NCBI GenBank assembly: GCA_022646745.1
Contig: CP060262.1
Coordinates: 3,870,001-3,902,000 of the forward strand
Source: Planctomycetales bacterium
GTDB lineage: Bacteria > 4484-113 > JAFGCY01
DNA length: 32,000 nt
Direction of reading: 5' to 3'
A program made the position numbers and the translations under genes. The notes beneath the pieces are model-generated. The model was not told the origin of the DNA. It saw only the letters and a program-made list of their open reading frames with translations, and did no database searches. Shown here one piece after another: positions 2,990-28,300 of the stretch (position 1 is its first letter; the number at the start of each line of letters is the position of its first letter).

Positions 2990-3101
2990 GAGAATATCTA
3001 CGGCGGCGGTTTGCCGCCGTTTTCGTTTTCTGGGATAATCGCGTTTCTATCCAGGCTGCCGGGATAGGTATAAGGAATCCGGCACCGATGTGGAGATGAT
3101 G

Positions 3102-4004
3102 ATGAGAATTGCAATCCTGACACTGATCATGCTGCTTGCCGCCATCCCGGCGCAGGCCTACACCCCGAACGTCGGCGACCGAGCAAATGACATCAGCGGC
3201 CGCGACGTGGTGAACGGGGGCGTGGCCCAGCTGTCCGACTACCTCGGCAAGTGGGTGTTCCTCGATTTCTGGGCCGGCTGGTGCGGGCCCTGCGTCGGTG
3301 AGATGCCGAACATGGTGCGTGAAACCAGCCGCGTGAAGGAGCAGTTTGGCAACTTCCAGGTGTTCGGTGTCAGCCTCGATGCCGACAGCACCACCAACCT
3401 GCTGCACAAGTACATCAAGGAAAACAACGTCGACTACCCGGTGACCTACGATGGCAACGGCTGGTCCACCGTGCAGAGCGTGGAGTGGGACATCCACTCC
3501 ATCCCGGCCACCTTCCTGATCAACCCGCAGGGTGTGATCGTCGCCACCAACCTGCGGGGCGAGGCGCTCGGGCCGGCACTCGACTTCTTCGTCGGCTATG
3601 AAGGCACCTACGCCCCGATCGGCCTGAGCAGCAGCTCGGCAGCCAACGATGACGGCAGCGTCAGCCTGAACGTGGAGCTGTTCAGCCCGGACCACCAGCC
3701 GATGCAGCTTGAGGTGGACTACTACCACGTCAAGTACGAGTACACCGAGACTGAATCCGGCGAGCGCAAGCGCAGCGGCAGCGAGTTCATCGAGCCGGAC
3801 GAGGAGAATTCAGAGTTCAGCGAGACCGTCACGTTCGGCGACTTCGGTGACAGGAGCATGAGCTTCACCATTCCCGCAGTGGAGGGTGCCGAGCTCGTGG
3901 GCTACAGCATCCGCGTGAAGCTGCCCGGCACTGATTCCCTCAACGACGGCGAAGGCCTGTGGGTCAGTGACAGCGGCCGTGTACGCATGGAACTTGATAA
4001 GTAA
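3102..4004 (+). CDS. Exported TlpA/ResA-like thiol:disulfide oxidoreductase (CGPC active site) with a C-terminal ~130-aa domain of unknown function
   Basis: ORF track 3090..4004. The start is probably ATG 3102 (MRIAILTLIMLLAAIPAQA, signal peptide). GKWVFLDFWAGWCGPCVGEMP is the thioredoxin-fold CxxC motif. HSIPATFLINPQG contains the cis-Pro loop. The C-terminal extension is shared with the three paralogs below. Confidence 0.85.
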   Translation: MRIAILTLIMLLAAIPAQAYTPNVGDRANDISGRDVVNGGVAQLSDYLGKWVFLDFWAGWCGPCVGEMPNMVRETSRVKEQFGNFQVFGVSLDADSTTNLLHKYIKENNVDYPVTYDGNGWSTVQSVEWDIHSIPATFLINPQGVIVATNLRGEALGPALDFFVGYEGTYAPIGLSSSSAANDDGSVSLNVELFSPDHQPMQLEVDYYHVKYEYTETESGERKRSGSEFIEPDEENSEFSETVTFGDFGDRSMSFTIPAVEGAELVGYSIRVKLPGTDSLNDGEGLWVSDSGRVRMELDK

Positions 4005-4043: not shown

Positions 4044-4946
4044 ATGAGGAACAAGATCCTGGCAATCGCGGCACTGGCAGCCATGCTGCTTCCCGCCGCG
4101 GCACATGCCCAGTTCGAGGCCAAGGCCGGCAACCGTGCACCGGAGCTGTTCGGCACGGATGCGGTGACCGGCGACTGGGTGGACATGGCCGACTTCAACG
4201 GCAAGTGGGTGCTGGCGGAGTTCTGGGCCACCTGGTGAGGACCCTGCATGAGGCAGTTGCCTCAGGTCGTCTCCGGTACCCGCGAACTGATTGACAACGG
4301 CAGGCTGGGGATGATCACCGCCAGCTACGACCGTGACAAGCAGGCCCTGCTCAATGTTATCGATGAGCGGGACATCACCTACCCCGTGATCTGGCAGAAC
4401 CAGGACAGCAATCGTGGCAACACGGAGGACTGGAACATCCGCGGCATCCCGACCACGGTGCTGATCAATCCGCAGGGCACCATCGTGGCTGACCTGCGCG
4501 CCGGTGAGGATTTCCAGCAGGTGCTGGAGTACTTCATCGAGCATGGCGAGGATCTCGGAGTGGTTGACATCAGCGGCAATGCCGTGACCCAGGATGACGG
4601 TTCCGTGAAGGTTGACCTCGAGATGTACTCCAGCCTGCACCGCGCTCTCGACGTGAAGGTCGAGGCCTACCGCGTGGTCTACAAGTGGGACGAGGAGAAT
4701 GACCCGAACCACGAAGGCCGCCCGCTGGACCGTGAATACATCGACCTGGCGGAGGAAGGGCATGACTTCTCCTTCACGCAGGACTTCAAGTGGTTCGCTG
4801 ATGCGGAGCACAGCTTCGTGATTGACAACATCGGAGAGGCTGACGCGGTTTACGTGATGGCCAGTGTGACCTACCCCGGCAGCGAGCACCTCAATGATGG
4901 TGAAGGTGTCGGCGTGTCCTTTGGTCGCAATGTGCCGCTGCCCTAG
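4044..4946 (+). CDS. Exported TlpA-like thiol:disulfide oxidoreductase, predicted selenoprotein (UGPC; in-frame TGA at 4236..4238)
   Basis: Track ORFs 4044..4238 and 4248..4946 are in the same frame. Read-through gives GKWVLAEFWATW-U-GPCMRQLP, with the TGA aligned to the first Cys of WCGPC in 3102..4004. The fold continues downstream with RGIPTTVLINPQG. GGAG lies 7 nt upstream of ATG 4044, and the N-terminus is a signal peptide (MRNKILAIAALAAMLLPAAAHA). Confidence 0.8.
4236..4264 (+). promoter_or_regulatory. Putative bacterial SECIS: UGA + 10 nt + hairpin UGAGG-CAGUUG-CCUCA
   Basis: The stem is 4249..4253 paired with 4260..4264, and the loop CAGUUG is 4254..4259. The same architecture with compensatory stem changes occurs at the other two TGA sites. 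Confidence 0.6.
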
Positions 4947-4973: not shown

Positions 4974-5002
4974 GGGGAGTCCTGCGGGGCTCCCCTTTTT
5001 TT
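4974..5002 (+). terminator. Rho-independent terminator after 4044..4946
   Basis: GGGGAGtcctgcggggCTCCCC is followed by TTTTTTT. Confidence 0.7.
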
Positions 5003-10994: not shown

Positions 10995-11933
10995 ATGAAA
11001 ACGATAAAGCTGATGGTCGCCGTGATGGTTCTCCTGTGGACCGCCCCGGCGCTGGCATTTGAAGCGGATGCGGGAAACCGTGCCCTGCCGCTCTACGGCA
11101 TCGACCGTGTCAGCGGAGACTGGGTTGACCTGGCCGATTACCGCGGCAAGTGGGTGCTGCTGGAGAACTGGGCCACCTGGTGAGGACCCTGCATGGGGCA
11201 GTTGCCCTATCTGCTGGACGAGACCAGTGAACTGCGCAAGCGCAGTGACTTCGCCGTGTTCACCGTGGCATTCGACAACCCGGACCGCGAGCAGGAAGTC
11301 GACAAGGTGATCCGCGAGAAGAAGATCCCGCATGTGGTGGTCTGGGACCACCGCGAGGCGACGGACCTTTCCAACAAGGCCGACTGGAACATCAAGGGCT
11401 TCCCGACCACCGTGCTCGTCAACCCCGATGGCATCATCCAGGGCAGCATGGACGTGGACGAGAACCTTGAGGAGAACCTGCTCTACTTCCTCGAGCAGGA
11501 CAGTGTCCCTGCCCCGATCGGACTGAGCTTCAGCAAGCCGACTGATGACGAGGGAAATGTCATGCTGTCGGACGATGGCTCGGTCAGGCTGACGATTGAT
11601 GTGTACAGCCCGACGCATGAGGATCTCGAAGTGATGGTCGACGTGATGGGCACGAAGATCAGCTATGATGACGAGAAGGATCCCGAGCACAAGGAACCGA
11701 ACTACGAGCCCGTCAACTACCGTGACGAGGGCCGTGCCCCGGACTTCACCGCCAGCTTCAGCCAGTACGGCAGTTTCACCAAGGACGTGATGCTGACGCC
11801 GGAGGAAGGCATGGGCTACCTGTTCGTGGTGGTCAGCGTGAAGATCCCCGGCACCGAGGCGCTCAACGGTGGAGAGGGACTGACGACGTCCAGCTTTGAC
11901 TTCATCAGCTTCCCGAAGGAAGATGCTGAGTAA
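10995..11933 (+). CDS. Exported TlpA-like thiol:disulfide oxidoreductase, predicted selenoprotein (UGPC; TGA at 11181..11183)
   Basis: Track ORFs 10995..11183 and 11193..11933 share one frame. Read-through gives GKWVLLENWATW-U-GPCMGQLP. GGAGG lies upstream of the ATG, and the signal peptide is MKTIKLMVAVMVLLWTAPALA. The cis-Pro loop is KGFPTTVLVNPDG. Confidence 0.8.
11181..11210 (+). promoter_or_regulatory. Putative SECIS hairpin A-UGGGG-CAGUUG-CCCUA-U
   Basis: The stem is 11193..11198 paired with 11205..11210 and includes one G:U pair. The loop CAGUUG is 11199..11204. The 5-bp core stem (UGGGG, 11194..11198) is 10 nt from the UGA as at 4236, and the extra A-U closing pair (11193/11210) shortens that gap to 9 nt. 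Confidence 0.55.
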
Positions 11934-12043: not shown

Positions 12044-12967
12044 ATGACCCGTACCATTCTGGCAACATGCCTGCTGGCCATCCTGCTGGCAGGCAGCCCC
12101 GCGCTGGCATTTGAACCGCTAAGCGGCACACGCGCCTACCCGATCAGTGGCACCGACATCGTCAGCGGCCAGCATGTGGACCTCGACCAGTACCTCGGCA
12201 AGTGGGTGCTGCTCGAGTTCTGGGCCACCTGGTGAGGACCCTGCGTCGGGCAGTTGCCCGAAGTGCAGGCATTGCATGAGCAGTTCGCGGGTCGCGATGA
12301 CTTTGCGCTCTTGTCAGTGAGTGGCGACTACCCCGACAGCATGGACGAACTGCGTCCGATGATTGAGGAATACGGCATCACCTACCCCGTGCTGCATGGC
12401 CTGGATGGCGATGAGCCTGACCTGCACGACTGGGATATTCTCGGATTTCCATCGGCCTTCCTGATCAATCCACAGGGCGTGGTCCTGCTGGAGACGCATA
12501 TCGGTGAGTACACAGCGGGCTGGCTGGAAACACTGCTCAACCTCGAGCAGGAGATTCCCGTGACCCAGCTTTCCGTGGACAATGAGCTGCTGGACAATGG
12601 CGGGCTGCGCTTCACTGTGCGTTCCGACAGGCAGCTGGATGTGCATGTCAATGTCGGCAAGATCCTCGAGGAGTACTGGGAAGATGTTGACGGAGAATGG
12701 CAGGAAGTGGAGAATCCTCCTGCCGACGCAGAGCCCAACATGAGTGCCTACCATTCACTTGACGACTGGGAGAACAGGATTGTCAGCCTTGAGCCGCTGG
12801 ATGGATCATTCGTCTACAGCTTTGAGATTGAGCCAGTTACGGACGACAACCTGTGGTTGATCCAGTGCAGTGTTTCAGCGCAGATCCCCGGAACCGAGGA
12901 GCTTGAAGCAATGCTTCCGATGCTGATGGCGGGAAGCGAATGGTTCAAGCCGGAATCGGATTCTTAG
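12044..12967 (+). CDS. Exported TlpA-like thiol:disulfide oxidoreductase, predicted selenoprotein (UGPC; TGA at 12233..12235)
   Basis: Track ORFs 12044..12235 and 12254..12967 share one frame. Read-through gives GKWVLLEFWATW-U-GPCVGQLP. AGGGAG lies upstream of the ATG, and the signal peptide is MTRTILATCLLAILLAGSPALA. The cis-Pro loop is LGFPSAFLINPQG. Confidence 0.8.
12233..12261 (+). promoter_or_regulatory. Putative SECIS hairpin UCGGG-CAGUUG-CCCGA
   Basis: The stem is 12246..12250 paired with 12257..12261, and the loop is 12251..12256. The second base pair is C-G here, versus G-C at 4250/4263. Confidence 0.55.
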
Positions 12968-12987
12968 GATATAATTTGCCTCCACGT

Positions 12988-13062
12988 CGGGCGGTAGCGC
13001 AGTCCGGTTAGCGCACTAGTCTGGGGGACTAGGGGTCGCGAGTTCGAATCTCGCCCGCCCGA
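12988..13062 (+). tRNA. tRNA-Pro (anticodon GGG)
   Basis: The hand-folded cloverleaf is 75 nt. Acceptor CGGGCGG/CCGCCCG, D arm GCGC-AGTCCGGTTA-GCGC, anticodon arm CTAGT-CTGGGGG-ACTAG, variable loop GGGTC, T arm GCGAG-TTCGAAT-CTCGC, discriminator A. G37 fits Pro. No CCA is encoded. Confidence 0.9.
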
Positions 13063-13085
13063 TATTCCTTTTCCTTATCGCGTTC

Positions 13086-21448: not shown

Positions 21449-22561
21449 CTAGATTAACTGACGGAACTGCTCATCACTGCGATGGAGTAATTCGCGCAGT
21501 TCCTTCAATTTGTCCTCGAGGTGCGTGCGTACATGCTCGCGCTCGTTCCACAGGTCCGCGAAGGTGCTGAAGGTGTCCTCGCGGTGCTGGGTGGCGGGGA
21601 AGCACCAGGGGAAGCCCAGTTCAGTGCCGATCTGGCTGATCTTGGGGTCGATCGCGATGCCGAGGCAGGGGACCAGCGCACCGGCGGCGGCGATCAGGCC
21701 GTGCAGGCGGCTGGTGATCACCAGCTGGGCATGGCGCGTGAGCTGCCAGTAGTCCGGTTGCGGCTGGTCCACTCCCGGGGCCAGCTGCGCATCGCCTACG
21801 CATTCAGCCACGATCTCCTGCGCGAAGCCGAGGTCCTCCGGGGCATAGGGCAGCACGAGGCAGTCCATCCCGGTCTGTTCACGCACATGCCGGATCAGGG
21901 TGGCCGCCGCCTGGGCTTCGCTTACGAGGTCATCCGGGGCCGGCAGGTCACCGCTGCGGCGCGGGATGTAGGCGAAGTAGCGGGCCGGCAGCTGCGAGCC
22001 GTCGAAACCGCTCAGCGGCGGCTGGTCATACAGCAGGATCGGGTCACAGGACTGCACAAGCCGGCAGTTGCCGGAGTCGACGCGGTGCTTCTGGGCCCAC
22101 TGCATGCTCTGTTCATCGCGCAGGCTGAGCATGTCCGTATTGCGTAGCACGATCGGCGTGAGTGTGCTGCCCAGCCAGGAGCTGATCGGGCCGATGCCCT
22201 GGTTGAGCAGCAGTACGCGGCAGGTGGACTGGGTGAAGCGACGGATGAACCAGAGGTAATAGAGCAGGCTCTTCACGCTGGAGCTGTCCTGCAGGATGCT
22301 GCCGCCGGGCAGCACCAGCACCTGGTAGTCGCGCGGGTCGAGGCGCAGGGCCTGCTTCTGGGGGACCAGCTGGCTGACACTGTCCAGCAGCTGGCGTGAC
22401 GAAGGAATGCCCGGCAGCAGCTTGTCGCCGCGCACCACTACGTCGATGTCGAAGTTCTGGTCGCGGAAGAAGCGGCCGTGGCGGATCAGCCAGTCGGCCA
22501 ATAGCGCCTCATCGCCGAAGTTTCCCGCACCGAAATAGCCGAGCAGCAGAATCCTTGCCAC
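21449..22561 (-). CDS. csaB: Polysaccharide pyruvyl transferase CsaB
   Basis: 370 aa. The N-terminus ILLLGYFGAGNFGDEALL and the C-terminal TSRLHGLI are typical of the CsaB/pyruvyl transferase family. Confidence 0.75.
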   Translation of the reverse strand: MARILLLGYFGAGNFGDEALLADWLIRHGRFFRDQNFDIDVVVRGDKLLPGIPSSRQLLDSVSQLVPQKQALRLDPRDYQVLVLPGGSILQDSSSVKSLLYYLWFIRRFTQSTCRVLLLNQGIGPISSWLGSTLTPIVLRNTDMLSLRDEQSMQWAQKHRVDSGNCRLVQSCDPILLYDQPPLSGFDGSQLPARYFAYIPRRSGDLPAPDDLVSEAQAAATLIRHVREQTGMDCLVLPYAPEDLGFAQEIVAECVGDAQLAPGVDQPQPDYWQLTRHAQLVITSRLHGLIAAAGALVPCLGIAIDPKISQIGTELGFPWCFPATQHREDTFSTFADLWNEREHVRTHLEDKLKELRELLHRSDEQFRQLI

Positions 22562-22605
22562 GTCTGGATTGTAGCTCAGGCCGGCGGCTGGGCTACAATC
22601 AGCCG

Positions 22606-24789
22606 ATGAAGGGATTGATAGTGGCAGCGCTCGTGGCCTGCCTCGTACTGGCGGGTTGCCCCGGCAGGGACGGCGACAACACGGGCAAGGCGCCCTCCGG
22701 CAAGTACGGGGAATACAGCCTGAAGCTGAGGGATGCGACTGCCTTCGAAGCGGAACTGAAGCGCCTGCAGGAGCATTTCGCGGGTGATGGCAGCGCCAGC
22801 GCGGTGACGAGCGGCAGCGCGCAGCTCAACTACAAGCTCGGACAGCGCGTGCGCGAGGATGGCATCGCGGTTGTGATGCGTGACAACACGACGGATGAGG
22901 AGCTGGTGCTGTGGGTCTGGCGCGACAGCACGGGCCAGCAGGCGGCACCGCAGCTTGTCAACCAGCAGGAGCTGGGCGGCGGCGGGATGAGCCTGCAGTA
23001 CCAGCTGGACGAGGGTGTGTTCCTCGCGCTCAGCCTGCGCTGGGTACAGGACCGCTACCTTGAGGTGAAGCGCAACTACGAGGCCGGCGGGCTGGATGCG
23101 GAGTTGCCAATGGGCAGCGATTACACCGCATGGACACTGGAGCTGCCGCCCCTGCCCTACCGACTGGCCGCCGGGGCCAGCGGGCCATTCGGCGTGCTGG
23201 AGGAAGCGCAGGCCGATGGGGCCTGGCACAGTGCGAACTATCCCGGGGAGCTGATGCTGCCAGCGCTGGCGGCCTACGACCAGAGCCGCGGCGTGCTGCT
23301 GGCGATCTCGGATGAGCATCCGCGACGGATGGACCGGGAGTACCACTGCGGCTGGCGGCTGGCCAACGGGATGGATGGCAATGATGGCAACCGGCAACTC
23401 AGCATCGACTACACGGTCTTCAACACCACGGTGGACGGCTTCACTGAGCCGCTGCTGATCAGCGGCCTGCCGCAGCGTGACAGCGTGGTGCTGGAGCCGT
23501 TCAGCTTGCAGCCGACGACGATGGAGGACAGTTTCGTGGCAGGCACGACCCAGCAGGTGGCTGACCGCATGAGCGACTTCGTGGCGGCCTTCCACGCACG
23601 CTACAGCCCGCGGCTCGTGACGGAGCAGCATACGATGCTGGATGCGCCGGGGATCAGCCCGGATACAAGCGGGGCGGAACTGGCAGCACTGCATGAGGTG
23701 CTGGAACTGAAGACCGGGCTGTGGGACACGGCGGGGATCATCACGGACACACGAACCGGGGCATCCTTCCCGGACGGACTGGCAATAGCCGGCCTGCCTG
23801 AGGATGCGGCGGTGAAGTGTGACGAATTCGGCATCACACAGTGGCAACGGGTCTCGCCCTTCAGCCTGCCGGCGGACAGCCCGGAACTGAAGAGCGACAG
23901 GGAACTGGCACTGCTGGACAAGCCTGGCAATGGCCCGGGCCGGGTGCCACTGAGGATCAGGCGGCCGCAGACCGCTGACAGCCTGCTCAGTGCGTTCGAC
24001 GGCGTAACTGGCAAGGCGCTGCTGCTGGACCTGGACACGCTCGTGACGGGAGGCCAGGACCCCCGCAGCCAGCCGCTGGCCGGCAGCCAGCAGGCGGCGG
24101 CGGCGATGCTGGCAATGAAGATCTGTGAGGACAACTCAGCGAAGGAACAGCCGCTCAGGCTGGCGATTGAGGGACTTCCGAGCCTCGGCATGCCGCCCTG
24201 TGCGGACATCTACCTGCTGCCCCATGCGGCGGACGGGCCGCTGCTGCGCGACCGGATACTGGGCATGCTCACGCTGCGCATCTTCGGCGTGCCGGCCTGG
24301 CCGGGGCACGGGATTGACAACAGCGCCGGGCTTGCGGCAGCCGTGACGGAGAACAGTGCCGGGCTGGTGGTGGACTATGAGCTGGCGCGTGGCAGCGCCG
24401 ACAGGCTGCTGCAGGCCAACCTCGAGCTGTTCCGTGAGGCCGGCAAGCTGGATGACTACGTGATGATGCACTGCGAGCCACGCTACGGCAGCTACACCCT
24501 GACCGGCGAGGCGCCGGCCAGCCCGGATGCCCTGCTGCTCGGCCTGCCGGCCAAGTGGAGCGGGCGCAGCCTGGTGCGGGTCTGCATCTTCGGTACCGGT
24601 GTTGATGCGCTGGTGGACCGCGAAATGATGATGCTCAACCTGCAGCTTGGCAACGGAGGCAGCGTGCTGCAGCCGATGCCATTTGGCAACTATGAGATCC
24701 AGAATGAGCAGCCGGAGGCGATCCCGGCCGGGGATGCGTTGCTGCTGATGCGCAACCTGGCGACGCCGGAGACCCAGGGACGCAGCTAG
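22606..24789 (+). CDS. Large lipoprotein of unknown function (727 aa)
   Basis: This is the in-frame part of track ORF 22396..24789. ATG 22606 gives MKGLIVAALVACLVLAGCPGRDG, a lipobox signal. The upstream part of the track ORF overlaps csaB on the opposite strand and is not credible. I recognise no domain. Confidence 0.6.
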   Translation: MKGLIVAALVACLVLAGCPGRDGDNTGKAPSGKYGEYSLKLRDATAFEAELKRLQEHFAGDGSASAVTSGSAQLNYKLGQRVREDGIAVVMRDNTTDEELVLWVWRDSTGQQAAPQLVNQQELGGGGMSLQYQLDEGVFLALSLRWVQDRYLEVKRNYEAGGLDAELPMGSDYTAWTLELPPLPYRLAAGASGPFGVLEEAQADGAWHSANYPGELMLPALAAYDQSRGVLLAISDEHPRRMDREYHCGWRLANGMDGNDGNRQLSIDYTVFNTTVDGFTEPLLISGLPQRDSVVLEPFSLQPTTMEDSFVAGTTQQVADRMSDFVAAFHARYSPRLVTEQHTMLDAPGISPDTSGAELAALHEVLELKTGLWDTAGIITDTRTGASFPDGLAIAGLPEDAAVKCDEFGITQWQRVSPFSLPADSPELKSDRELALLDKPGNGPGRVPLRIRRPQTADSLLSAFDGVTGKALLLDLDTLVTGGQDPRSQPLAGSQQAAAAMLAMKICEDNSAKEQPLRLAIEGLPSLGMPPCADIYLLPHAADGPLLRDRILGMLTLRIFGVPAWPGHGIDNSAGLAAAVTENSAGLVVDYELARGSADRLLQANLELFREAGKLDDYVMMHCEPRYGSYTLTGEAPASPDALLLGLPAKWSGRSLVRVCIFGTGVDALVDREMMMLNLQLGNGGSVLQPMPFGNYEIQNEQPEAIPAGDALLLMRNLATPETQGRS

Positions 24790-26243
24790 CGGCCCCTGCG
24801 CTCCCTTCGTTTGAGCTTCTTCGCCACTTCCGCAGCGATGTCACCGGGCGAGTCATGCAGCCAGCCCGCAAACGGGTTGAGCATGTCCGGCGTGGCCGGG
24901 ATGCTGCGGCTGCGCGGACTGCCCCAGCCCTCGAACAGGCGCGGCAGCTTCGGCGGCAGGTGCACCTCAGGCTGCGGCTCCACTGCTTCAGCCGGGGCGC
25001 TGCCAACGGCGTCCTGCACCGGGTCAGCGTGGGCCGGTTCCCCATGCTCTTCGGCAACAGCTGGATTAGTTTCCGGGCCGTCATCCAGCCAGCCCTCGAG
25101 CGGATTGACTGGTACACTGCGTGGCGGCAGCGGCTCATCCAGCCAGCCGTCCAGCGGGTTGCGCGGTGTGCTGCGCGCGTTGCCACTGCGCGGGATGTAC
25201 GGCAGGTCGGCCCAGTCCTCTTCCGGTGCCTCCACGAAGCTGCCATCCGGAGTGATCTCCAGCAGGCTCTCACCCTCCGGCAGGCGGTGCACGGGAGCTT
25301 CAGGCAGGGGTGGCATGCTGAGATTGCCACGCGGGGCCGGCTGCTCCAGCAGTTCCGGGAAGTGCGAGGGATGCAGGCCGCTGTCCGGCTGCTCCACGAG
25401 GTCAGCGGTGGATTCGTCGAGCTGGCCCAGCAGCGCGCTGTCAGCGACGGGCCAGTACCATTCGGCAATGTAGGGTTCATACTGCGGCAGGCACATGTCC
25501 GGCTCACAGGCCACGAACTGCTCGAGCACCATGCAGGCGATGTTCTTCGTGAGCGCAATCGCGAAAGGGTAGTCACGCGCCGCGAACTCGACTGTCAGCA
25601 GGTAGTGGCTGCCATCAATCACGCGCAGCACGCGCAGCTCGCCACTGACGGAGCTGTAGACCGGATCGCCTTCGACCGTTGGATGCATGAGCGGGCTCGG
25701 CAGCACTGCGCTGTAGCCAATGTACTCGCGGCTGCAGTTCTCCTTGTCCCGCGGGTCCGTCAGTCCCAGCGGGGAGCGCATCTCCGTCACACTGTAGCCG
25801 CTGTCAGTGCGCTGCTCGCGGGCGATCTGTGACCTGCGGGCCATGTAGGCCGCGCTTTCGTCGAAGCTCAGTCGCAGCGGGTTGGCATCTCCCTTGACCG
25901 GGCTCATGCGCAGGCTGGCAACAGCCTGGAAGCTGCCGCCGGCGGGATCGTGCGACATAAGCTGGATACTGCTCAGGCCATGGCCGGGGTACGGCAGTCC
26001 CTTATGCCAGGCCCCCTGGTTGTAGATGTATGGCTCATCCTCCACCGGGTGCAGCAGCATCCCGGGAGGGGCGATCGTGCTCCATTCCAGGCCGGACAGC
26101 ACCGGTGCCTGCTGGGGCCACTGCATGGTGGAGGCAGGCAACTCGTGGATGTCCGGCAGGCTGCGGCGTTCCTCCACGCGGGCATGCGCGGCAAGCGGCA
26201 GCAGCAGGCAGATCGCAGGCAGCAGTCGTGCAACAGGGTGCAT
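24786..26243 (-). CDS. Secreted protein of unknown function with C-terminal NPxxGWL repeats and a basic tail
   Basis: This is part of track ORF 24786..26345. The internal Met at 26243 gives MHPVARLLPAICLLLPLAAHA, a signal peptide. The track start lies inside a terminator hairpin. The C-terminus carries NPLDGWLDE, NPLEGWLDD, NPFAGWLHD and ends KKLKRRERRGR. Confidence 0.55.
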   Translation of the reverse strand: MHPVARLLPAICLLLPLAAHARVEERRSLPDIHELPASTMQWPQQAPVLSGLEWSTIAPPGMLLHPVEDEPYIYNQGAWHKGLPYPGHGLSSIQLMSHDPAGGSFQAVASLRMSPVKGDANPLRLSFDESAAYMARRSQIAREQRTDSGYSVTEMRSPLGLTDPRDKENCSREYIGYSAVLPSPLMHPTVEGDPVYSSVSGELRVLRVIDGSHYLLTVEFAARDYPFAIALTKNIACMVLEQFVACEPDMCLPQYEPYIAEWYWPVADSALLGQLDESTADLVEQPDSGLHPSHFPELLEQPAPRGNLSMPPLPEAPVHRLPEGESLLEITPDGSFVEAPEEDWADLPYIPRSGNARSTPRNPLDGWLDEPLPPRSVPVNPLEGWLDDGPETNPAVAEEHGEPAHADPVQDAVGSAPAEAVEPQPEVHLPPKLPRLFEGWGSPRSRSIPATPDMLNPFAGWLHDSPGDIAAEVAKKLKRRERRGR

Positions 26244-26313
26244 GTGGGGTATATCGGCAGGGGAAAGAGGTGGTTGAACCCTGGCTGGCAGACCGGCGAG
26301 CCTTCGGGCGAGA

Positions 26314-26373
26314 CGGCAAATCAAAAAGGCTCCACGATTTCTCATGGAGCCCTACCAAGTTAGGGGGGATGGT
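26314..26373. repeat. 60-bp direct repeat, copy 1
   Basis: cggcaaatcaaaaaggctccacgatttctcatggagccctaccaagttaggggggatggt is identical to 27700..27759. The flanks are unrelated on both sides. Confidence 0.9.
26318..26351 (-). terminator. Rho-independent terminator (minus strand) inside repeat copy 1
   Basis: The minus strand reads GGCTCCA-tgagaaatcg-TGGAGCC-TTTTTGATTT. Confidence 0.7.
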
Positions 26374-26391
26374 TCCGTCAATGTCTCCTTT

Positions 26392-26586
26392 CTATTTCAA
26401 AGGTCTCTTGAACCAGAGGAAGTGCATTAGTTCTACATAGTCCAAACTTCCCCCCGGAGAAACCGTTTCAGCATAAGCAGAAACAAGTTCCCATTCTTCG
26501 TTTCCCATCTGGGCCAAACGATTGTTGACATCTCTTTCAGACTGCCGACCCTCAACAAAGGAAATCATACAATGTTCCCATTTCAT
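26392..26586 (-). CDS. DUF4177-like small protein
   Basis: 64 aa. MKWEH...LAQMGNEEWELVSAY...WFKRPL matches my recollection of the DUF4177 pattern (MkwEY..., GeeGWELV, ...fKRp). The coding sequence is low in GC. Confidence 0.55.
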   Translation of the reverse strand: MKWEHCMISFVEGRQSERDVNNRLAQMGNEEWELVSAYAETVSPGGSLDYVELMHFLWFKRPLK

Positions 26587-26596
26587 CCCTGAATCC

Positions 26597-27166
26597 TCAC
26601 TCCTCAGCGCAAAGCAGTGCGAAATACGTTACTGTGTCACGAATAGCCTCTTGGTCAAAGTAAGTCTCTTGGTTGTATAGGCCTTCTATGACCACTTTGG
26701 ACAAGTCAAATTCCTCCAGCGTCCTCACAAAATCCACTTCAGCATTCCCCTCACCCTTATTGGAAATCAGAATCACGCTGGAAAACTCTATGTAGACGTT
26801 AGCCTTTGAAAGCTCCTTTGACACATAGCTTTTGGAGAACTCTTCAGACTTTCCAACTCCAACAGCCTTAGAAAAAGTCTCCCCGTTGTATTCAACGTAG
26901 AACCAGCACTTGCTTGGCAACAACCTTTCTTCCTGAATACTGCCAATGTTAAGAACCAGCCTGTAGCAAGACCTGTCACTTTCAGGCTGTTCTATGGTTA
27001 GGTACACATGAGGGGACTCCGTAGGGATTCCGCTCTTGTGAGTGTGGACAATGACTCCTTCGTCCTCAAAGTAATCAACAGCGAATCTGTCACTAAGTTC
27101 TTCAGCATATGAAAAGGAACTCAGTGAAATGAAAGCCAGAAAACACAGAATAAATATATTTCTCAT
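26597..27166 (-). CDS. Secreted protein of unknown function (189 aa)
   Basis: This is part of track ORF 26597..27298. ATG 27166 has GAGGT 9 nt upstream and gives MRNIFILCFLAFISLSSFSYAEE, a signal peptide. The sequence is low in GC and I recognise no domain. Confidence 0.55.
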   Translation of the reverse strand: MRNIFILCFLAFISLSSFSYAEELSDRFAVDYFEDEGVIVHTHKSGIPTESPHVYLTIEQPESDRSCYRLVLNIGSIQEERLLPSKCWFYVEYNGETFSKAVGVGKSEEFSKSYVSKELSKANVYIEFSSVILISNKGEGNAEVDFVRTLEEFDLSKVVIEGLYNQETYFDQEAIRDTVTYFALLCAEE

Positions 27167-27204
27167 TATAAGTTTACCTCGGGCACTTACTATGGTTGTT
27201 GGAT

Positions 27205-27495
27205 TCATTGTGCCAATGCACTTAACCCCAAACCACCAACCATAGCAACCAAGAAATAGGCCAAGAATGGAAGCACAATGAACACCCATACAATGCAACC
27301 AAGTGATTGAGCAATTGAACTAAGTTTCTTGTGCGTCGTTTCTGTCAACTCTAGAACGTCATTGTGATAATTGCAAAGGTCTTGTCTAAGAGCTCTATTT
27401 TCATTGACCAGCAATGTGAGTCTCTTACATACTCTGTCATTTTCCTTTTCTAATGCTTCAAGAAAGTCCTCTTGGCTTCTACCTGCAGTATCCAT
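27205..27495 (-). CDS. Tail-anchored coiled-coil membrane protein (96 aa; alternative starts up to 27552)
   Basis: ATG 27495 is preceded by AGGTGA 5 nt upstream. MDTAGRSQEDFLEALEKENDRVCKRLTLLVNENRALRQDL is a coiled-coil-like heptad sequence. The C-terminus LGCIVWVFIVLPFLAYFLVAMVGGLGLSAL is hydrophobic. Confidence 0.45.
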   Translation of the reverse strand: MDTAGRSQEDFLEALEKENDRVCKRLTLLVNENRALRQDLCNYHNDVLELTETTHKKLSSIAQSLGCIVWVFIVLPFLAYFLVAMVGGLGLSALAQ

Positions 27496-27699
27496 AACTT
27501 CACCTTCTGGAATTGTTGGGCTCATTGTAACCATAGTGACCCTTTGAATCAAGGATTAGTCAGTCAGTAACTTGTTTCACGAGTCTCAACTCAAGCGCTA
27601 TGGCAACAGCATGGAAGGGAAGTTCAAGGTCATCAGACAAACCACGAGCTGGCGACTTCAAGTCGAAGGAATGGTTCAGCAAGAATTCTGATGATTCCG

Positions 27700-27759
27700 C
27701 GGCAAATCAAAAAGGCTCCACGATTTCTCATGGAGCCCTACCAAGTTAGGGGGGATGGT
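27700..27759. repeat. 60-bp direct repeat, copy 2 (contains the same minus-strand terminator at 27704..27737)
   Basis: 60/60 identity to 26314..26373, offset 1386 bp. Confidence 0.9.
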
Positions 27760-27880
27760 AAGCGCTGTGTCATGGGCGCACACAACGCAATTAAGTCATA
27801 CCCGATCAGGGCAGGCTCTACAAGTGGCAATGCCCGATTTCTGCGGAATTCAGCCCAATTCAGATGTTTTGGGGCTGTTG

Positions 27881-28300
27881 TCAGTCGCGCTGCGAGGCAT
27901 TGTGCTCGCGCAGCACTCGCCTGACAATGCTGCGCAGACGGCGGGCGCGGTTGCCAGACAGGGGCTGCGTGTCAAGACTCGCAAGTACGGGGACAGCAGT
28001 CTCCCGCGCTGGCGGATCCGTTTCCAGGCCCAGCGACAGGCTGGCCTGTGCGTCGTCCCTGTGTGAGGCCAGTTCAGGTTGTCCGGCATGGCCAAGCCTG
28101 AGCGGCAGTTCGAGCCGGGCTGAACTGAGCAGCGCATGCTGGCCCAGCTCATCGCGGATCCGGCTGATGCCGGGCAGAGCATCAGCCAGCGGGATTGCCG
28201 GAGCGCGCAGGATATGCGGCAGGCTGCCGTCGCGGCCGTAGAGACCGAGCACCAGGTCGAGTTGTAATTCGCCGGGATCCTGCATTCTGACTGTCCGCAC
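27881..28300 (-). CDS. Hypothetical protein
   Basis: 139 aa from GTG 28300, or 134 aa from ATG 28285. This frame shows the strong G/C third-position bias seen in the other real genes, unlike the overlapping ORFs. I recognise no motif. Confidence 0.45.
   Translation of the reverse strand: MRTVRMQDPGELQLDLVLGLYGRDGSLPHILRAPAIPLADALPGISRIRDELGQHALLSSARLELPLRLGHAGQPELASHRDDAQASLSLGLETDPPARETAVPVLASLDTQPLSGNRARRLRSIVRRVLREHNASQRD

Follow-up and report, generated by a model that had tools for sequence, protein, structure and literature searches.

How is a UGA codon read when it stands in frame at the redox centre of three related genes, each of which continues as an intact coding sequence beyond it? 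This question is raised by a 32,000-nt stretch of the genome of a Planctomycetales bacterium (assembly GCA_022646745.1, contig CP060262.1, positions 3,870,001 to 3,902,000 of the forward strand; hereafter the window, numbered from its first letter), which holds four paralogous genes for predicted exported thiol:disulfide oxidoreductases. One of them, the Cys paralog, encodes the first Cys of its CGPC motif in the usual way, and the other three, g1, g2 and g3, have TGA at this codon. Each TGA is followed, within the coding region, by a small hairpin that is very probably a bacterial selenocysteine insertion sequence (bSECIS).

Results

Three paralogs have UGA at the codon of a redox-active Cys

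If its UGA is read through, g1 (4044..4946, + strand) encodes a predicted secreted TlpA/ResA-like selenoprotein with a signal peptide, an FWATW-U-GPC motif (U, selenocysteine or Sec) and a C-terminal beta domain. The putative Sec codon of g1 (4236..4238, +) aligns with the Cys of CGPC in the Cys paralog (3090..4004, +; TGC at 3282-3284), which lies directly upstream and carries the motif WAGW-C-GPCVGEMP. The paralogous candidate selenoprotein genes g2 (10995..11933, +; TGA at 11181-11183) and g3 (12044..12967, +; TGA at 12233-12235) were delineated, like g1, by translation, Pfam and tblastn. All three genes specify an N-terminal signal peptide ending in A-x-A, the FWATW-TGA-GPC motif and, in translation, 235-249 open codons beyond the TGA. 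In each, the TGA is the codon of the first CGPC Cys of the adjacent fourth paralog, and this Cys paralog and its orthologs have TGC or TGT there. Alignments by tblastn cross the TGA in one piece (in g1, residues 1-300).

Protein identity among the paralogs is merely 30-38%. A sequence-only reading of this DNA had pointed to an identical 25-nt string around the TGA of the three genes, and CTGGGCCACCTGGTGAGGACCCTGC indeed has three exact copies on the + strand, at 4223, 11168 and 12220, with 0 expected in shuffles; GGCAGTTGCC is present 4 nt downstream of each copy. The upstream coding sequence GGCAAGTGGGTGCTG is also identical between paralogs.

Global reassignment of UGA (genetic codes 4 or 25) was ruled out: TGA is the stop codon of 5 of the 13 well-supported reference genes in the window, and is therefore not reassigned genome-wide. 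The window has 47 in-frame TGAs flanked on both sides by 50 or more open codons, and among them no further convincing selenoprotein candidate was found. All public gene calls that we found (ENA, NCBI, JGI and Logan) for the window and for the related loci L001-L008 cut these genes at the TGA, into a product of 61-64 aa and a 'hypothetical protein' of 221-239 aa, so the putative selenoproteins are unannotated in databases.

A hairpin with an AGUU loop follows each UGA

Ten nucleotides past each TGA stands a hairpin of 6-7 bp with an AGUU tetraloop closed by a C-G pair. With the U of UGA counted as nt 1, the core pairs are formed by nt 14-19 with nt 24-29 around the loop A20-G21-U22-U23. In g1 the folded core hairpin occupies 4249..4264 (+; stem 4249-4254/4259-4264, loop 4255-4258), and an optional lower helix can form between 4240-4243 and 4265-4268 (nt 5-8 with nt 30-33). 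Folding and pair counts give g2 a hairpin at 11193..11210 (+), with a stem of 7 bp (11193-11199/11204-11210, loop 11200-11203) through an extra A13-U30 pair. The folded element of g3 (12240..12269, +) has its core at 12246-12261, its loop at 12252-12255 and a lower helix of 12240-12245 with 12264-12269 (nt 8-13 with nt 32-37) that includes a 2-nt bulge.

The sequence-only reading had located the hairpins at 4249-4264, 11194-11209 and 12246-12261, and minimum free energy (MFE) folding returns all three. It had described a 5-bp stem with a 6-nt CAGUUG loop; sequence and place are right, but the ends of CAGUUG pair as C19-G24, so that the stem has 6 bp (7 bp in g2) and the loop is the AGUU tetraloop. 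The base pairs it had listed for the second and third positions of the stem are also correct: across g1, g2 and g3, pair 15:28 is G-C, G:U and C-G, and pair 16:27 is A-U, G-C and G-C. The core hairpins alone have energies of -9.5 (g1), -10.2 (g2) and -11.0 (g3) kcal/mol, and 50-nt folds of the three sites range from -16.2 to -21.0 kcal/mol. The hairpins were also considered as transcription terminators and rejected, since they are not followed by a T-run; it is after g1 and after g2 that terminator-like sites are found.

The bSECIS consensus model of Zhang & Gladyshev 2005 (bSECISearch), as far as it is summarised in a 2026 review (PMC13188914), combines a loop of 3-9 nt on an upper stem of 4-16 bp, a G at loop position 1 or 2 with, as a rule, G or U behind it, a spacing from UGA to loop of 16-37 nt and a free energy of <= -7.5 kcal/mol. 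The AGUU loop has 4 nt, the stem has 7 bp in g2 and 6 bp in the other two genes, and all three core energies lie below the -7.5 kcal/mol limit. G21 is present in all 13 sequences of the close family defined below and U22 in 12 of 13, the exception being the AGGU loop of L026. The spacing, nt 4-19, is 16 nt in g1, g2 and g3, exactly the lower limit. The elements here thus share with the consensus a stem-loop inside the open reading frame (ORF) just 3' of the UGA and a small loop with G followed by U, and differ in a spacing at the very bottom of the range and in a lower helix that varies among g1-g3. The alignment of the in-frame UGA with Cys in homologs and the two covarying pairs in the close family agree with the model as well.

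The SECIS element of E. coli fdhF consists of a minimal 17-nt upper stem-loop 11 nt past the UGA, with G23 and U24 in the loop and a bulged U17; these details are reportedly due to Huttenhofer/Bock and to Liu et al. 1998. The hairpins here likewise begin 10-11 nt past the UGA and, by analogy, may present an apical-loop GU to SelB. In contrast to fdhF, their GU is at nt 21-22 (two nt closer), the bulged U is absent, AGUU takes the place of the GGUC loop and the stems are unrelated in sequence.

In g1 an alternative pairing is possible (window 4236-4264), between the 3' arm CCUCA and the UGAGG to which the Sec codon itself belongs. Such a UGA-sequestering fold is the computed MFE structure in several orthologs and in many genes of the RGAWPH type (L001, L005, L016, L042 and others). 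It is impossible in g2 and g3 and is therefore probably incidental.

Stem pairs covary in the close family

We assessed covariation by counting standard pairs on ungapped alignments in codon register. Pair counts were preferred over a covariance model because a model of 16-18 nt is statistically weak and a longer one is driven by the coding conservation of UGA-GGN-CCN-TGY. The close family comprises 13 distinct, gapless sequences: g1-g3 of the window, their orthologs from L001-L007 and L128, and the Planctomycetota relative L026. Standard pairs fill 86.8% of cells in this alignment; shifting the 3' partners by 1-3 columns lowers the figure to 25-65%. At pair 15:28, GC occurs in 10 sequences, GU in 2 and CG in 1, and at pair 16:27, AU in 7, GC in 5 and GU in 1. 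Pairs 17:26, 18:25 and 19:24 are invariant, and 13:30 is mostly unpaired. The covariation score of 0.231, compared with 0.116 in column shuffles, was reached by none of 500 shuffles.

The hairpin is not explained by the peptide

Because the hairpin overlaps a conserved motif, we compared it with a null in which synonymous codons are resampled and the peptide is held fixed. An equal or better hairpin arose in about 5% of trials for g1, 1% for g2 and 0.6% for g3 (Sec-gene percentiles 0.006-0.06). For the Cys paralog the corresponding figure was 22-37%, and this gene, which lacks a significant hairpin, can serve as a negative control from within the window. When the 47 in-frame TGAs of the window are ordered by hairpin stability, the three sites take ranks 2-4, and rank 1 is an off-frame artefact within g2.

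Synonymous variation points the same way. Seven orthologs of g1 from independent assemblies have 71-84% nucleotide identity over 450 nt, and codons +3 to +9 (TGC ATG AGG CAG TTG CCT CAG) are identical in all seven. None of the 5 degenerate codons within the hairpin varies among them, compared with 15 of 22 flanking degenerate codons whose amino acid is conserved (hypergeometric p~0.01, by our own arithmetic).

Metagenomes scanned with a 5-sequence alignment yielded only 5 loci, of which one is a Sec g2-like gene and four are Cys relatives. The latter (L129-L132, on metagenome contigs), a natural control with matched peptide, encode CGPCMRQLP, with Arg as CGC or CGT and, in three of the four, Leu as CTG, and the hairpin cannot form in any of them (0/4). 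On these comparisons of sequences, the peptide does not dictate the hairpin.

Sec forms in other phyla carry GU-loop hairpins

Searching 185,579 species genomes for W-A-x-W-TGA-G-P-C gave at least 119 stretches. After filtering and the addition of earlier loci, the matches listed contain 92 distinct ORF-embedded Sec forms, together with 29 chance or off-frame matches that served as negative controls. The 92 listed Sec forms come mostly from Planctomycetota and also from Acidobacteriota, Armatimonadota, Actinomycetota, Verrucomicrobiota and Bacteroidales. Among the matches listed, genes for putative TlpA-like W-A-x-W-U-G-P-C selenoproteins are common in metagenome-assembled genomes (MAGs) of Planctomycetota.

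For every sequence we took the best simple hairpin with a loop start at nt 17-37, without preselection. Its median energy is -9.5 kcal/mol in the listed Sec forms (n=92), -4.6 kcal/mol in the listed chance matches (n=29) and -2.8 kcal/mol in Cys forms (n=14), and the proportions at <= -7.5 kcal/mol are 74%, 17% and 7%. Among the matches listed, the Sec forms differ from each control set with a Mann-Whitney p~1e-6. A GU is present in the loop of 72 of the 92 listed Sec forms and of 12 of the 43 controls, and peptide-preserving resampling gives a mean z of -1.68 for the listed Sec forms compared with -0.02 for Cys forms. The sequence-only reading had named the lack of any conserved hairpin at this spacing in homologous Sec genes of other genomes as one result that would refute it; among the matches listed, Sec forms of other phyla do carry covarying GU-loop hairpins at the same place, whereas Cys forms do not.

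Loop starts in the listed Sec forms fall into two clusters, nt 20-21 and nt 34. The proximal class has its loop at nt 20-23 (for example the RGAWPH, REEFPH and MGQLP types), and the distal class, with PHLVEV types and a GUU triloop, has it at nt 34-36. Among the matches listed, 95.7% of cells are paired in the proximal class of other phyla and 94.7% in the distal class, with 5 of 7 pairs compensatory in each, although both percentages are inflated since the classes were chosen by hairpin register. We consider it possible, though on balance doubtful, that TlpA-like UGPC selenoproteins carry a SECIS at two mutually exclusive positions, nt 20-23 or nt 34-36, and that the short-spacing type was retained in this lineage through an old three-fold gene duplication next to a Cys paralog.

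GU occupies nt 21-22 in 33 of the 55 listed Sec forms with a proximal hairpin and in 1 of 14 Cys forms. A loop GU at this place means that codon 8 starts with U (L (UUG), F, W or Y), so the RNA appears to limit the class of residue at codon 8. The sequence-only reading had gone further and held that the RNA forces Gln-Leu here. This cannot be due to the RNA alone, because the Cys-type relatives L129-L132 encode Gln-Leu in CGPCMRQLP and have no hairpin; what stands of the claim is the confinement of codon 8 to codons that begin with U.

On the - strand of L026 (Planctomycetota HKST-UBA88), at 1383 and 2499, a Sec form with an AGGU loop and a 7-bp stem accompanies a Cys paralog (WATWCGPCMANIPH, no hairpin). 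This Sec/Cys tandem mirrors the Cys/Sec tandem of the window.

The predicted proteins fit a known selenoprotein family

The best Pfam hit of the g1, g2 and g3 translations is PF00578 AhpC-TSA, with 44.2, 50.7 and 58.9 bits against a gathering cut-off of 26 (AhpC-TSA/Redoxin), and all three contain W-U-G-P-C, a UxxC motif with Sec in first place. Prx-like thiol:disulfide oxidoreductases (PF00578, UxxC/UxxU) are an established predicted selenoprotein family, attributed to Kryukov & Gladyshev 2004 in the lists of PMC9312934, PMC13188914 and PMC1794560, and Cys-to-Sec conversion is common among thiol oxidoreductases (PMC9312934, PMC13188914, PMC1794560). By domain and motif, the predicted proteins of g1-g3 fit this family: they score above the gathering cut-off for PF00578, have U-x-x-C with Sec in place of the N-terminal Cys and coexist with Cys homologs. 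They differ from it in the addition of a signal peptide and of an uncharacterised C-terminal beta-sandwich domain of ~130 residues. NCBIfam NF041054 (ResA-like WAxxUGC, TlpA family) shares the TlpA/ResA-like fold and a selenocysteine behind a W-A-x-x motif, but was ruled out, as the proteins score 30.8-34.7 bits against its cut-off of 300 and have WATW-U-G-P-C (UxxC) rather than U-G-C.

The AlphaFold model of the Cys paralog (mean pLDDT 77) combines a thioredoxin fold (residues ~25-167) with a beta domain of eight strands (176-297). Its modelled N-terminal domain superposes on ResA, DsbE and CcmG and less closely on TlpA, with target TM-scores of 0.57-0.83 and 22-34% identity (ResA chains 0.69-0.79, TlpA 1jfu 0.57; examples in the PDB are 1st9, 4nmu, 1jfu and 1kng). 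As far as the model goes, these paralogs would resemble ResA, TlpA, CcmG and DsbE in export, in a CXXC-type centre and in the fold of the N-terminal domain, and would differ in that three of the four have Sec instead of the first Cys and in the additional C-terminal beta domain.

This C-terminal domain (3600-4001, 4560-4943, 11500-11930 and 12560-12964) spans ~130 residues in all four paralogs and has no Pfam match in any of them. It contains a conserved PGTE-LNDGEG motif and is predicted to form an eight-strand beta sandwich. The two-domain layout is loosely similar to the C-terminal region of DipZ, on which it superposes poorly (root-mean-square deviation ~15 A). The C-terminal part of g1 has 8 database relatives, all of them truncated calls of 221-232 aa that start just past the UGA, bar one distant Cys form. 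Judged by these matches, the clade is rare and lineage-specific.

Alternative explanations

The bSECIS reading, which the sequence-only reading had put forward as a SECIS-like element, gains support from the alignment of UGA with Cys, the agreement with bSECIS constraints, compensatory change in the stem, frozen synonymous sites and the hairpins of Sec forms in other phyla. Several observations weigh against it. The stem is short and without the bulged U of fdhF, and the 16-nt spacing is at the extreme lower limit. No Rfam family matches any of the three sites, at gathering scores or at E<=10; to our knowledge, the Rfam SECIS models do not cover generic bacterial elements. The resampling percentile of g1 is just ~0.05, and the pairing in the two positional classes is inflated by their selection. 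The kinship of paralogs and orthologs leaves few independent events behind the two covarying pairs, and covariation in the close family therefore supports the structure and is not decisive alone. Finally, a search confined to the 32-kb window and the related loci found no selA, selB, selD or tRNA-Sec genes there.

The hairpin might instead be a by-product of the conserved peptide, whose GGN and CCN codons for G..P pair naturally, and of codon bias, with the TGAs as inactivating mutations or assembly errors in what would be pseudogenes. A weak UCGG/CCGA hairpin of -5.5 kcal/mol is possible at the same place in the Cys paralog, and the identity of the upstream coding sequence among paralogs implies that part of the nucleotide identity is coding conservation. 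Yet three paralogs, and orthologs in 8 or more independent assemblies, have the TGA at the same codon, with 224-249 intact codons after each, synonymous sites are frozen within the hairpin only, its stability is above that of peptide-preserving nulls, and CGPCMRQLP in the Cys relatives yields no hairpin. The conserved open frames already largely refute this explanation, which we regard as exceedingly improbable. It is also extremely unlikely that translation ends at the UGA and that a separate downstream gene, starting at an ATG 10 nt on, makes the second of two products of 61-64 aa and 221-239 aa, with the hairpin acting in initiation or coupling. All the gene callers concerned (ENA, NCBI, JGI and Logan) make this split, and codon +4 is ATG in g1 and g2; however, it is GTC in g3, the cut would fall in the middle of the CXXC of a thioredoxin fold, the hairpin would occlude the proposed start codon, and the Cys paralog, like its orthologs, encodes one full-length protein, with a modelled ResA-like fold.

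A further possibility is that the UGA is read through without SelB or Sec, the hairpin stimulating near-cognate or suppressor decoding, for example as Trp or Cys. Downstream hairpins can stimulate read-through in other systems, and for this genome the Sec machinery is only presumed. Against this, the codon is that of the catalytic Cys of CXXC, a classic Sec/Cys pair, where Trp as the CXXC nucleophile would inactivate the enzyme. The loop GU and the spacing agree with the SelB-type consensus, and the architecture is shared by the 92 listed Sec-form genes across phyla, mostly from Planctomycetota MAGs, in whose genomes Sec use is presumed. Read-through of this kind is thus very unlikely, and we retain the bSECIS as by far the most probable identity of the hairpin.

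Locus and genome context

The tandem of Cys paralog and g1 is kept in L001-L007 and in L102. L102, from a MAG labelled "UBP7 HKST-UBA01", has a g1 with no differences apart from the recoded codon, and its Cys paralog is 97% identical; other members bear the labels Planctomycetales or 4484-113. Co-transcription of the Cys paralog and g1 is suggested, on the basis of a consensus scan only, by a promoter-like site at 3011-3039 and by a hairpin with T-run that resembles a terminator after g1, at 4974..4995 (+).

Orthologs of g2 were found in L003, L004 and L128, and tblastn detected no ortholog of g3 in the related loci, so that g3 is seen in the window only. In L003 (14951-16077) and L004 (6066-7144) a tRNA-Pro(GGG) gene follows the g2 ortholog, and in the window g3 lies between g2 and the tRNA-Pro gene (12044-13063). 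Because no related locus has a g3 ortholog, g3 would be either a lineage-specific gain or a gene lost elsewhere. The interval from the adenine glycosylase gene to the g2 ortholog contains short called ORFs in L003 (14507-14890, 62 and 56 aa) and L004 (5661-6020, 57 and 42 aa); tblastn with the four paralogs misses them, and they are therefore probably not decayed paralogs.

A transfer-messenger RNA (tmRNA) gene with the tag GNTNFELAAA stands a few kb upstream of the Cys paralog/g1 pair in L003 (3887-4236) and L102 (307-659), and no tmRNA gene was found in the window. Elsewhere in the window, positions 26001-28000 have a G+C content of 0.49, compared with 0.57-0.67 in the remainder, and ORFs without a Pfam match; this part may be foreign or intergenic DNA. 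Long overlapping ORFs of 797 aa (+) and of 423 and 519 aa (-), none with a Pfam hit, occupy 22396-26345.

Discussion

We infer SelB binding and selenium incorporation at these genes from their fit to a well-established mechanism, and by the same analogy selA, selB, selC and selD would be encoded elsewhere in the genome. With the UGA in the A site, nt 4-13 would occupy the mRNA channel and the hairpin, from nt 14, would stand at the channel entrance. The C-terminal winged-helix domains of SelB, in a SelB-GTP-Sec-tRNASec complex, would bind the AGUU loop, through G21 and U22, and the upper stem, and SelB would deliver Sec-tRNASec where release factor 2 would otherwise act. Next, the hairpin would be unwound and translated as (M/V)(R/G)QLP. 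Read in this way, each of the three genes would yield an exported thiol:disulfide oxidoreductase of the TlpA/ResA type, in which a U-G-P-C redox centre is combined with a beta-sandwich domain at the C-terminus.

The case is real but ordinary, and adds three unannotated predicted selenoprotein paralogs to the known UxxC family. Mechanistically it holds nothing new, because both recoding by SelB and SECIS and selenoproteins among UxxC thiol oxidoreductases are well established. The two positions of the hairpin in the wider family, if they are true alternatives, would imply either repeated independent births of SECIS elements after Cys-to-Sec conversion or migration of the element along the ORF; SelB variants tuned to short spacing would be possible, and the short-spacing element would fix the class of a residue by the active site through a codon 8 that begins with U.

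With the UGA read as Sec, three full-length exported oxidoreductases are recovered for this organism. The same correction of annotation probably applies to many of the listed Sec-form relatives, mostly in Planctomycetota MAGs. With one Cys and one to three Sec paralogs side by side, and peptide-identical Cys relatives elsewhere, these genes offer a clean system for studying an RNA signal overlaid on a coding sequence.

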